DNA of 64,000 nucleotides from positions 9,660 to 73,659 of the forward strand of contig JAZUBR010000020.1 in NCBI GenBank assembly GCA_045638625.1, in the 5' to 3' direction. The position numbers and the translations under genes were made by a program. Source of the stretch: Candidatus Gastranaerophilaceae bacterium. GTDB lineage: Bacteria; Cyanobacteriota; Vampirovibrionia; Gastranaerophilales; Gastranaerophilaceae. Below, piece after piece: positions 10,090 to 16,325 of the stretch (positions are counted from its first letter, which is position 1; each line of letters begins with the position of its first letter). The notes beneath the pieces are model-generated. The model searched no databases. It was not told the origin of the DNA and was given only the letters and a program-made list of their open reading frames with translations.

Positions 10090-13053
10090 CTAATTTAATT
10101 TATAGAGGCTCCCAGTTTTATTTTTTATTTCACCATTAGTTTCTATATAACCACCAAGAGCATCAAGGTAAACCCCTTCTTCTGGCAAATTACCGAGTAT
10201 ACAAACTCTTTTATTGACAGTGCCTATTGTTATATCAGATGTTTCAATATCATTGTAGGCATCTCCTAAATAAATAAGAGTTTTATTATTTCCAGTTATA
10301 TCTTTTGCAACATTTTCCGCATATTTTGTAATAGCATTTCTTAAATTTATGCTTTCTTCATTAGATAATTTTTCAGAGTTTTTAATTTCAATATTATCAA
10401 TTATAAAAGCCGGCTTTGAGTTTACTATTGCAATATAACAAAGAGCATTACCTACTATGTCACCTGTTTTATTATCCGCAATTTCAATCATATTAAAAGT
10501 TGAATTTAACAAATATTGAGGCATAAATTCTTCGTTACATTCCCCAATGCCAATACAGCAAGTAGAATAATTTCCTTGGAACAAATCTTTTAGCGGATTT
10601 CTATCCCACATTTTGATTGTCCAATCACATTCTTTTACGGAATTGCCTACCTGTACCTGTTTAACGTCCTTAACTCTTTGATTTAAGTGGTTAAGGACTG
10701 TTATTACGTTTTTAGCTCTTGTAACTTTTTCCAACTCAGTGCTTCCTAAATTATCACTAGCACGCTTCCATATTTGATAAAGTTGTCCTTTTTCTGTGTC
10801 ATTGGCTAAGTTTTCCACTAATTCTTTTAATAAATTTTGGTTACTTGCAATTCGCTCAGGAATTATGAATTGGTCATCTTTTACATATTCTCTAAATTGT
10901 TTTTCAATAAAACTTTTAGCTTGAGTTTGTAATAATGTATTCATATCTTCAGATATTTGCTTAGCAATTTGTCTTAATTTTCCTTTGTTATTATCGATGG
11001 TTACAAATTTAACCTCATTTTCTTTTCTAGGGTTAAGCCACAAATCATAATTTAAAGAATTTGTTTTAAAAATTCTTTTTACCTCAGCATTTGTTTCTTT
11101 GTAACTATTTGATTTATTGAGAATATAGTTTTTAAAATTAGAACTTGTTAGCCCTTTAAAAAGTTCTTTACCAATTTCACAATCTTCATATCTAGCAATA
11201 AAATCGGCCAATAACACTGCGTTATTTATTCCTAATATTGCTAATTGTTCATCTGTTATACTTTTAAGTTTGTATTCATTCTCTTTTAGGATTTGTTTTA
11301 TAAAATCAATTTCAATTTTTTTAATATCAACATCTTTTTTGTCCACCATATCATAGATATAATACATTGGGATTTCATGTGTTTTGTATATTGATAAGAT
11401 GTTAATAAGCCCAGTTTTTTCCTTTGTTGTGGGAATTTTCCCATTATTGTTTTTAGGATTAATTAGATTACTATATAGAATTTTTTCATCTTTAGATAAA
11501 TCAAAAAATGCATCCACAGTACCATTTGCGCGGTATAACATCAAATAATCTAATGTAATATCATCAAGATAATCTATTGAATCTGCTAGTTTTATATAGT
11601 TAATTGTGAACCAATCCAAGGCATTAGCTCTATTGATGGACTCCGCATTTTCAAATTGTTGTGGCGGATGTTTAATTATTCTTTTTTTCAAGCTTGCCAG
11701 TTCGTCAAATTTTTGTGAATATTTTTCATAGGTTTCAAAATCAATTGGAATATCTTGTTTGTAGAATCGATGGTAAATATACTCATCAGGTAAAGAAGAA
11801 TAATATAGCGGCAATGCCTCTTTTATATTGCTACAATAATTATCCCTAAACATAAAATGAGAAAGGTTTTCATCAGTTAACATATCGTTTAACAACTTAT
11901 ATTCTTCTGGAGTTTCTGCTTGCAAATAAGCTTTCAAAATTGGTCTTCTATTATGAACAAATCCATTTGAGCCCCAAGCATAAAGATTTTTTAGGAATGT
12001 AGTTCCTTCTTCAGAAGACAAATCCTTATGTTTGAGTTTTTCAATATATTTTTTCCCCTCAGGAGAAAAGACCGCAAATGTTCTTGCTATTATAGGCTCC
12101 ATTTCTCCATATTTACTCTGGATGTGTTTTAAAATATCCAAAATATCTGAATGGGGATAGTCATACGCTAAAAATCTATAGCTAATGATTTCTAACATTT
12201 CTTTAGAATATTTTCCATCTTTTGTAATATAAGGAAGTAGCTCCTTGAAAGGGAAGACTCTTGTAGAATGAGTACCTCGATTAATAGGATTTTCCCAACG
12301 AAATTTTGTGGAAAGCGCTTCTACTAATAAATTTTCATTAATCTTTCCGTTTGAATCAACAGCACCGCTTAAATATTCATAATCCCCTCTTCTTGTACAA
12401 TTTCTCACAATTATATCAATCTTTTCTTGGGAGAAAGTGCCATCCTCATTTTTACAAAATTCAAGCTCTCCTTCTTCAGGTAAATTATATTTATTGTATC
12501 CATCTTTATATTTTCTAAATAGTGAAAAAGCTTTTTCATCACAAATTCCGTCAGAATCTTTTATGATACTTAAACTTTTAGTTATTGCATATTTATCAAA
12601 ATCGTCTTTTCTAGCATCAAACCATTCTAAGATCTTTGTCTGAATGTTTCCGTCTTTATCTTTTATATTTTCTACAAGATAACAGTGACGAAGGCTTTGG
12701 CGTGCAGGTTCTAGTAGTTTCAATGCTTGTGGAATAATATCTTTTTTAATAAGCCCAAATTTGTTTACACAAGCTTTTGCATAGTTTTCTAAATACGGAG
12801 TATTGAATTTTGTTTTTGATTTAAGAATTTCTAATAATTCTTTTTCTGTAATATACCCATCTTTGTCATTTTGGTTTTTATTTGCATTCATTGTAACATT
12901 TGCTATGAATAATGCTGAACTAACAGAGGCTAAAGTTTTGATAGCATTATCGAAAGAAGGGTTATTTTGTGCATAACTAATATGTTTAATATTTGTGATT
13001 TCTTTATTTTCAAGAAAAACTTTTTTAATACCTTGAATATTCAAAACTTTCAT
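10090..13053 (-). CDS. Large hypothetical protein, paralog A (~987 aa). The conserved C-terminal ~190-aa domain carries FQGNYSTCCIG and GNALCY.
   Basis: The start was reassigned to the ATG at ~13053 (MKVLNIQ) because GGAG lies 9 nt upstream; the track start at 13062 is a GTG. There is no signal peptide, TM segment or recognisable catalytic motif. The protein is ~55% identical to paralog B overall and ~85% over the last 190 aa. Confidence 0.8.
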   Translation of the reverse strand: MKVLNIQGIKKVFLENKEITNIKHISYAQNNPSFDNAIKTLASVSSALFIANVTMNANKNQNDKDGYITEKELLEILKSKTKFNTPYLENYAKACVNKFGLIKKDIIPQALKLLEPARQSLRHCYLVENIKDKDGNIQTKILEWFDARKDDFDKYAITKSLSIIKDSDGICDEKAFSLFRKYKDGYNKYNLPEEGELEFCKNEDGTFSQEKIDIIVRNCTRRGDYEYLSGAVDSNGKINENLLVEALSTKFRWENPINRGTHSTRVFPFKELLPYITKDGKYSKEMLEIISYRFLAYDYPHSDILDILKHIQSKYGEMEPIIARTFAVFSPEGKKYIEKLKHKDLSSEEGTTFLKNLYAWGSNGFVHNRRPILKAYLQAETPEEYKLLNDMLTDENLSHFMFRDNYCSNIKEALPLYYSSLPDEYIYHRFYKQDIPIDFETYEKYSQKFDELASLKKRIIKHPPQQFENAESINRANALDWFTINYIKLADSIDYLDDITLDYLMLYRANGTVDAFFDLSKDEKILYSNLINPKNNNGKIPTTKEKTGLINILSIYKTHEIPMYYIYDMVDKKDVDIKKIEIDFIKQILKENEYKLKSITDEQLAILGINNAVLLADFIARYEDCEIGKELFKGLTSSNFKNYILNKSNSYKETNAEVKRIFKTNSLNYDLWLNPRKENEVKFVTIDNNKGKLRQIAKQISEDMNTLLQTQAKSFIEKQFREYVKDDQFIIPERIASNQNLLKELVENLANDTEKGQLYQIWKRASDNLGSTELEKVTRAKNVITVLNHLNQRVKDVKQVQVGNSVKECDWTIKMWDRNPLKDLFQGNYSTCCIGIGECNEEFMPQYLLNSTFNMIEIADNKTGDIVGNALCYIAIVNSKPAFIIDNIEIKNSEKLSNEESINLRNAITKYAENVAKDITGNNKTLIYLGDAYNDIETSDITIGTVNKRVCILGNLPEEGVYLDALGGYIETNGEIKNKTGSLYKLN

Positions 13054-13118
13054 AATAAACACTCCTTGTTTTTATTAAGTAGTATCATTATGAAAATTTG
13101 CTGAAAAATTTACATATT

Positions 13119-16253: not shown

Positions 16254-16325
16254 AAAACAATTCCTTGCTAACATTAAAACTTGTGATTAACAAGAATTGC
16301 TTTAATATTAAGAAACATTAAGAAG

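Follow-up and report, generated by a model that had tools for sequence, protein, structure and literature searches.

The gene pair

A window of 64,000 nucleotides (nt) from a Candidatus Gastranaerophilaceae bacterium (contig JAZUBR010000020.1, positions 9,660 to 73,659) carries two adjacent genes, here called A and B, whose products belong to a protein family that is undescribed in the libraries and papers we searched. Both products end in a domain of ~185 amino acids (aa), predicted to be a far-diverged version of the GNAT (GCN5-related N-acyltransferase) fold. The genes are arranged head-to-tail on the minus strand, with mechanical open reading frames (ORFs) at 10090..13062 and 13278..16274. 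Their true starts are likely to be the ATG codons at 13053 and 16253, each of which follows a Shine-Dalgarno sequence, and NCBI records hold exactly the corresponding 987-aa and 991-aa products, without names. Residue numbers are those of the 987-aa protein A; the identity, dN/dS, codon and conservation computations were run in the numbering of the GTG-start ORF (+3). The genes and the spacer between them are as follows.

13278..16253, minus strand: gene B, the upstream paralog, 991 aa and a stop codon; ATG at 16253 after AAGGA, mechanical ORF extending to 16274.
13054..13277, minus strand: B-A intergenic spacer, which holds the Shine-Dalgarno sequence of A and runs on from the 3' end of B, a segment near-identical to that of a relative (see below).
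10090..13053, minus strand: gene A, the downstream paralog, 987 aa and a stop codon; ATG at 13053 with AAGGAG 8 nt before it, mechanical GTG ORF extending to 13062.

A reading made from the sequence alone, before any searches (hereafter the sequence-only reading), had proposed that these two same-strand genes are paralogs, and a BLASTP alignment of 1044 bits, far above chance, with 55% identity over the full length bears this out. It had also described a gradient of identity, from ~55% over the first ~800 aa to ~85% over the last ~190 aa. The gradient is real and the N-terminal figure was roughly right (51.5% over aa 4-800 of a MAFFT alignment, ORF numbering), but the last 190 aa (801-990) are 70.0% identical, and the high-identity module is confined to a core of ~90-125 aa around the motif QGNYSTCC rather than spanning that whole segment. 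Identity reaches 88.8% over aa 812-900 and 80.6% over aa 812-935, then drops to 50.9% over the last 55 aa (936-990), where the extreme C-terminus varies as much as the N-terminus. The climb begins well before this core, from about aa 660, with 66.7% over aa 660-800. The motifs quoted in that reading are all present, QGNYSTCC lying at 10555-10578 in A and at 13737-13760 in B.

Two processes had been offered for the gradient, purifying selection and gene conversion, and the synonymous sites separate them. In a Nei-Gojobori sliding-window analysis the proportion of synonymous differences between A and B (pS) is 0.51-0.74 in all windows, including the C-terminal domain, and is thus saturated everywhere, which implies that the duplication is old and that no recent conversion has taken place. 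Identical residues likewise share the same codon no more often at the C-terminus than elsewhere, and recent conversion between A and B was rejected on the saturated dS. Over aa 812-911 the non-synonymous divergence (dN) is 0.06 and the ratio of non-synonymous to synonymous divergence (dN/dS) is 0.06, against 0.09-0.43 in the remaining windows and mostly 0.15-0.25 in the N-terminal 600 aa. Since dN is low there while pS is saturated, the similarity of the core reflects purifying selection on the protein, stronger in the C-terminal module than elsewhere. A and B are ancient tandem paralogs.

A predicted GNAT fold at the C-terminus

The conserved core lies within a discrete C-terminal domain, which was delimited in both proteins.

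10093..10641, minus strand: predicted divergent GNAT-fold domain of A, aa 805-987.
10555..10578, minus strand: QGNYSTCC motif of A, aa 826-833, placed by the model in the loop from α1 to α2 of the predicted fold.
13281..13823, minus strand: predicted GNAT-fold domain of B, aa ~811-991; its QGNYSTCC motif occupies 13737-13760.

The structural model of the domain is confident, with a predicted local distance difference test score (pLDDT) of 88.8 and a predicted template-modelling score (pTM) of 0.87. Foldseek, which had been proposed as a check for this region, returned GNATs as its top matches and no peptidases. The predicted order of elements starts with β1 (WTIKMW), followed by α1 and α2, which flank the STCCIG loop, then β2 (FNMIEI), β3 (IVGNALCYIAIV), β4 (AFIIDNIEI), a long α3, β5 (LIYLG) and four more strands; the model shows the mixed α/β topology β1-α1-α2-β2-β3-β4-α3-β5 of the GNAT superfamily. 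Among the GNAT N-acetyltransferases the closest solved structure is NatD/Naa40 (PDB 4u9w, 4ua3), with 5-17% identity to the A/B domain. In GNATs and N-terminal acetyltransferases the α1-α2 loop lines one wall of the acceptor-substrate site, and it is in this loop that the model places QGNYSTCC. Where the sequence-only reading could name no family for any part of the proteins, one can now be assigned to the last ~185 aa alone, and at the level of the fold alone.

Conservation was counted over 141 copies of the domain, among which pairwise identity falls to ~25-30%. Five residues are invariant (R818, G827, C833, E889 and Y962), and a further set is conserved in at least 95% of copies (W816, P820, D823, C832, N854, E857, D860, G868, N887 and G954), C832 being kept in 139 of the 141. 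A third cysteine, C872, occurs in 111 copies. E889 lies at the C-terminal end of predicted β4 (DNIE), and a glutamate on β4 as general base together with a tyrosine as general acid is the commonest catalytic pair of GNATs (PMC8556138). An invariant cysteine, on the other hand, is unusual for a GNAT.

The fold and the conservation pattern bear directly on the earlier suggestion that the Q-x5-C arrangement in FQGNYSTCC corresponds to the oxyanion Gln and catalytic Cys of a papain-like or C39 cysteine peptidase. The likeness consists of that spacing and of the invariant Cys, and of nothing else. The Gln is present in 117 of the 141 copies and is replaced by M, L or I in a divergent subgroup; the alignment contains no conserved His, and the last 155 aa of A and of B contain no His at all, as the sequence-only reading had itself remarked. 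With a confident α/β GNAT model and no peptidase among its structural matches, we rejected the peptidase reading on its wrong fold and absent His, and regard it as extremely improbable.

A large and modular family

The family to which A and B belong is large. A profile search with exhaustive HMMER over 1.84 billion representatives returned 554 clusters (at 50% identity) when the cutoff was E≤1e-3, of which 158 passed E≤1e-30; an earlier word-indexed search with full-length A had given just 4 clusters, an under-count that the exhaustive search corrected. Most profile matches span positions ~440-990, which define a family core of ~550 aa, usually at the C-terminal end of proteins that range from ~470 to 4177 aa in length. 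The motif KMWDRxPxKDxFQGNYSTCC is near-universal, and a divergent subgroup shares the last ~170 aa only, with the motif MW[DE]RNPQEDLFxGNKTTCCTAIG. As to whether the C-terminal domain is fused to other N-termini, it is: unrelated N-terminal regions precede it across hundreds of relatives.

In a scan of GTDB (one genome per species, with exact peptide patterns required) 86 relatives were confirmed, of which the best 80 loci were kept. Their hosts are nearly all metagenome-assembled genomes (MAGs) of Gastranaerophilales, Gastranaerophilaceae, Melainabacteria or 'Cyanobacteria UBA' from gut and rumen, with 1 to at least 4 loci per genome, counts that are lower bounds because the scan needs exact patterns. 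Same-strand tandem pairs occur in other genomes as well (L025, L049). Distant copies, at 29-32% identity, were found in one Vampirovibrionales, one Paceibacterota and one Patescibacteria MAG. The Paceibacterota protein (L083) carries a long array of HEAT repeats before the domain (Pfam HEAT, 1.5e-92) and retains both KLWDRDPxKDLFQGNYxxCC and DNxE. The view of a small, lineage-specific family therefore did not hold: with at least 554 clusters, the family occurs throughout Gastranaerophilales and reaches Vampirovibrionales and Patescibacteria.

Some architectures and host assignments depart from the common pattern. Several giant members contain two copies of the domain, one internal and one C-terminal (L011, L029, L031-L033, L042; P0005, P0023, P0120), and in others an internal copy is followed by over 1000 aa (L018, L028, L052, L064). 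Family genes also lie on MAG contigs labelled Muribaculaceae or Clostridia (L006, L051, L052, L061, L072); since all other hosts are genomes of Vampirovibrionia or of the candidate phyla radiation (CPR), these copies probably stem from binning errors that put Gastranaerophilales contigs into the wrong MAG, and not from true transfers.

At the level of sequence the proteins match no family that we could name, in agreement with the sequence-only reading. Searches of Pfam and NCBIfam with A, B and an 1804-aa protein encoded elsewhere in the window returned nothing above threshold apart from an HD domain in the latter; PADLOC gave no match for any of the three, and matches to PHROGs were sub-threshold at most. 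PDB sequence searches with A and with two profiles (A3, A5) gave no match, a word-indexed domain-profile search yielded solely the name 'hypothetical protein [Candidatus Gastranaerophilales bacterium]', and literature searches found nothing on the family. No relatives were found on viral contigs. Clustering of the ORFs around the 80 loci revealed no recurrent neighbours beyond a ClpB-like gene (13 loci) and prepilin-like genes (10 loci), and hence no immunity-like or secretion partner. The prepilin-like genes may recur through mere abundance in the lineage; the one in our window (16923-17522, minus strand) lies two genes upstream of B, has the N-terminal sequence 'KKAFTIIEISILAVILLIV' and matches no Pfam family.

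Departures from canonical GNATs

From the model and the conserved residues, we file the domain as a GNAT fold that probably works like a GNAT acyltransferase, without membership of any curated GNAT family. Several observations weigh against this assignment and are gathered here. In GNATs the pyrophosphate of coenzyme A (CoA) is bound by the P-loop of motif A, Q/R-x-x-G-x-G/A, which lies between β4 and α3 (PMC8556138), whereas in the A/B domain this pattern is not conserved, occurring anywhere in the domain in 24 of the 141 copies, and the consensus of the β4-α3 loop after the invariant Glu is I-N-N-S-x-K-P-S-D-E-x-G-x-x-L-R. The motif B helix α4 is also missing: in neither model does DSSP assign a helix to the stretch from β5 (aa 926-930) to the following strand (aa 948-952), a loop with pLDDT ~69-75 and a conserved N-D pair. 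With the limit relaxed to E≤5, a Pfam scan of 34 diverse copies of the domain gave no match to a GNAT-clan model and no consistent family, and A and B themselves have no match to Pfam Acetyltransf_* or NCBIfam models at E≤1. Neither an operon partner nor any other contextual clue to a substrate was found in the 80 loci.

Some of these features, and others, set the A/B-type domain apart from known GNAT proteins. Beyond the missing clan match, P-loop and α4, it differs from the superfamily in the Cys-Cys pair of the α1-α2 loop and in its setting, within helical proteins of 470 to more than 4000 aa and behind a dedicated α-domain of ~360 aa. A large N-terminal non-catalytic region before a C-terminal GNAT-type domain is also found in the bacterial lysine acetyltransferases of types I-III, such as Pat/PatZ (PMC8556138). 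A and B, unlike these, have no NDP-forming acyl-CoA synthetase-like, cNMP-binding (cyclic nucleotide monophosphate-binding) or ACT domain; their N-terminal parts have no detectable relatives, and their GNAT domain is non-canonical. A canonical GNAT domain does occur in one giant family member, P0082, where the lone Pfam GNAT match among the giants (Acetyltransf_1, aa 729-811) has a QGQGIG P-loop and lies far from the QGNYSTCC domain of the same protein (aa 2182-2367). Its placement comes from a motif regular expression and the Pfam scan, a phmmer search with an E. coli RimI sequence being uninformative by score.

The absence of the P-loop and of α4 means that acyl-CoA may not be the donor, or that the domain may just bind a ligand. 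The first of these possibilities has parallels. The Fem, Leu/Phe-tRNA-protein and arginyl (ATE1) transferases are GNAT-fold enzymes that depend on tRNA and have no P-loop, and in ATE1 a pair of adjacent cysteines is important for function. By analogy, the A/B domain could use aminoacyl-tRNA or another activated donor in place of acyl-CoA, or its Cys pair could bind a metal or an iron-sulphur (Fe-S) cluster. The Cys-Cys pair and the third cysteine, C872, would fit such chemistry, and the loss of both CoA-associated elements would be explained by it; we think it rather unlikely.

The second possibility is a catalytically dead GNAT-like module that serves as a platform for binding or oligomerisation, with the proteins themselves being structural or scaffolding components. 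Non-canonical cofactor motifs and a helical repeat scaffold that makes up the bulk of the protein would fit such a role, and inactive GNAT domains with structural roles do exist in tandem-GNAT enzymes (PMC8556138). The pattern of constraint argues the other way. Although identity between copies falls to ~25-30%, five residues are invariant and about ten nearly so, and most of these have polar or nucleophilic side chains (R, D, C, C, N, E, D, E, Y), as expected of an active site rather than an interface, and the dN/dS of 0.06 adds to the case. We therefore consider a dead module improbable and retain the reading of an active, GNAT-like transferase.

Variable N-terminal regions and mosaic divergence

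The remainder of the protein falls into two further parts.

10642..11736, minus strand: all-α conserved middle domain of A, aa ~440-804, part of the ~550-aa family core.
11737..13053, minus strand: fast-evolving N-terminal region of A, aa 1-439.

In the full-length model of A, aa ~475-800 form an all-α domain with pLDDT 85-97. The first 62 aa are of low confidence or disordered, and aa ~65-470 are helical with moderate confidence and contain six 'DxDG' units, each a β-hairpin plus a helix, at aa 63, 132, 166, 202, 233 and 277 (DKDGYITEKEL, DKDGNIQTKIL, DSDGICDEKAF, NEDGTFSQEKI, DSNGKINENLL and TKDGKYSKEML); B has two. In an EF-hand, two helices enclose a loop of 12 residues with the pattern D-x-[DNS]-x-[DNS]-G-x-[ILV]-x-x-x-E. 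Where paired EF loops would be expected, the model has a β-hairpin followed by a helix in each unit, and EF-hand Pfam matches are sub-threshold and confined to aa 66-82 of A (EF-hand_6, E=0.03, 14.5 bits where the cutoff is 25). The N-terminal and middle regions have no structural or sequence relative in the PDB.

Comparison of the locus with relatives indicates that its segments have diverged at very different rates. The order LOG gene, gene 1, gene 2, BamA gene is kept on three contigs of related organisms. Against one relative, L001, the flanking housekeeping genes show 76-85% nt identity, and aa 1-440 of B fall to 66.7%. Further along B, identity rises to 98% over aa 501-600, is 79-87% over aa 601-800 and reaches 97.7% over aa 801-991 (13281-13853), followed by 95.1% in the non-coding spacer between B and A. 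The gene in the A slot is much more divergent, with 39% nt identity and 483 gap columns over aa 1-440, 61% over aa 441-800 and 74% in the GNAT-fold domain; in L001 it encodes 848 aa and lacks aa ~65-233, and in a second relative, L002, it is frameshifted. The diversification of the N-terminal region that the sequence-only reading had predicted is thus evident, the N-terminal ~440 aa diverging fast.

The block of ~0.8 kb that is near-identical to L001 (13054-13853) spans synonymous sites and non-coding DNA, which excludes selection at the protein level as its cause and points to recombination between lineages. An identical protein (P0002) in three independent assemblies argues against an assembly chimera. 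The nucleotide comparison indicates that the 3' end of B and the spacer, together with the second 98% block at aa 501-600, record recent inter-lineage recombination in a mosaic gene. As judged from these alignments, the locus appears to join a constrained C-terminal end, fast-diverging front ends and segmental exchange.

Family N-termini often read 'M-[KQRN]-I-x3-6-N...', followed ~20-45 aa on by '[VI]-S-F-x-G' or 'FTSK-EMSDEEF', a motif seen in P0019-P0105, in ORFs of L005-L081 and in aa 1-30 of both A and B. Of 172 family proteins, 110 match the pattern '^M.[ILV]' and 30 the combined pattern; among 265 neighbouring ORFs taken as background, the counts are 60 and 5. The 'M-x-[ILV]' signature could be a lineage-specific sorting or secretion signal.

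Taken with the mosaic divergence, this enrichment raises the question of an exported effector, or a weapon akin to polymorphic toxins, a role that would be compatible with acyltransferase chemistry. The family resembles polymorphic toxins in being multi-copy, variable in length, modular and recombining, and in residing in small-genome gut symbionts. The N-termini outpace the flanking housekeeping genes, relatives have a different, truncated or frameshifted gene in the A slot, the recombination signal falls at the 3' end of B, and the first ~60 aa are disordered; an exported rather than a cytoplasmic location would fit these observations. Against such a role stand the lack of a signal peptide or transmembrane segment in either protein (maximum Kyte-Doolittle 19-residue means of 1.38 and 1.49; a Walker A motif is also absent, all as the sequence-only reading had stated) and the lack of any conserved immunity, chaperone or secretion neighbour in the 80 loci. 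The PADLOC, PHROG and viral-contig searches likewise lend it no support. The polarity, moreover, is the inverse of classical polymorphic toxins: the C-terminal end, where the 'warhead' would sit, is the conserved part of A and B, and no cognate immunity gene accompanies it. We consider the effector role an unlikely one.

Genomic context and other features of the window

The genes that flank the pair on the same strand are all housekeeping genes by their Pfam matches, as the earlier description of a block from rny to bamA had it. Upstream of B lie genes for RNase Y, YmdB, a PHP phosphoesterase, the prepilin-like protein and a LOG-family protein, and downstream of A those for BamA, Skp, a pyrimidine-nucleoside phosphorylase and an FlhA-like protein. 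The G+C fraction is 0.27-0.29 over the pair (10001-16000) and 0.32-0.37 in the rest of the window, a dip that may stem from a Lys/Asn/Ile-rich composition. Cargo of a prophage or mobile element was rejected as its cause: synteny is kept in relatives, which argues against recent acquisition of the low-G+C pair, and relatives are absent from viral contigs. In the spacer between B and A, Rfam gave no match to a structured RNA and the RNA fold is unremarkable (z = -2.1); promoter and terminator scans did not exceed shuffle expectation.

The 1804-aa ORF (33851-39265, minus strand) has an HD domain at aa 1322-1406 as its sole Pfam match. It also matches the family profile (E 1e-20) through repeats at aa 685-1198, which include at least eight 29-aa 'LAEKLCxDKEFPKEHIxxIL' repeats, a module common to the A/B family and to this protein. 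It has no GNAT-like end, shares an EF-hand-like N-terminus with giant family members and contains a Gly-rich hydrophobic stretch at aa ~525-570. From its sequence it seems to be a sister architecture that carries another enzymatic head.

The FlhA-like gene is an FHIPEP (FlhA) ORF of 489 aa (4826-6295, minus strand) that covers profile positions 321-655 of 657; it therefore has the cytoplasmic C-terminal portion but lacks the membrane domain at the N-terminus. Its counterpart in L001 (15682-17144) is split into ORFs of 110 and 395 aa, and it may be a degenerating flagellar export gene. The only Rfam or ARAGORN features in the window are a class A RNase P RNA (230 bits; 52763-53116, plus strand) and a tRNA-Arg(CCT) (1396-1473, minus strand).

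Discussion

We favour, with confidence somewhat above an even balance, a model in which A and B represent a modular family whose α-domain and divergent GNAT-fold domain carry out an acyl-transfer-type reaction through E889, Y962 and C833, while the N-terminal repeats provide targeting. Each protein is built in three parts, N-terminal helical repeats (aa 1 to ~440), the all-α domain (~440-800) and the predicted GNAT-fold domain of ~185 aa. In this model QGNYSTCC would form the α1-α2 loop and, together with R818, E889 and Y962, make up the catalytic site of an enzyme that transfers acyl groups. General base would be E889 and general acid Y962, and C833, with C832, might be a covalent acyl-thioester carrier, or else a ligand for substrate or metal. 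The task of the variable N-terminal repeats, whose place is taken by HEAT repeats in homologs from Patescibacteria, would be to bring the enzyme to a target or partner.

A bolder reading goes further, and we entertain it as a minority possibility. The family could be an unrecognised class of Cys-dependent, P-loop-less GNAT-fold transferases that work by covalent catalysis on C833 or with a non-CoA donor. Its members would be multi-copy modular effectors or regulators of Gastranaerophilales, whose target-recognising N-termini, and entire segments of genes, would be reshuffled by recombination among lineages as part of an arms race against host, phages or competing microbes.

The A/B pair is one instance of a widespread family, and its chemistry now has a conventional best guess. 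The fold is known; the family is new to the libraries and literature searched, and deviates from the superfamily in its cofactor motifs and in the Cys-Cys pair. The combination of P-loop loss, missing α4 and Cys-Cys pair describes a GNAT variant that current libraries of hidden Markov models miss. Placing the domain among the GNATs turns a 'hypothetical protein' into a testable idea, namely acyl transfer in which the invariant Cys, Glu and Tyr would take part.

The Gastranaerophilales are widespread, uncultured, non-photosynthetic relatives of Cyanobacteria with small genomes that live in human and animal guts. For such organisms, several unannotated genes per genome, encoding proteins of 0.5 to 4 thousand aa, amount to a substantial blind spot in annotation. 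The mosaic divergence seen in nucleotide comparisons suggests that A/B-type genes are under diversifying and recombinational pressure, a pattern that marks them as candidate factors in interactions with the host or with other microbes.

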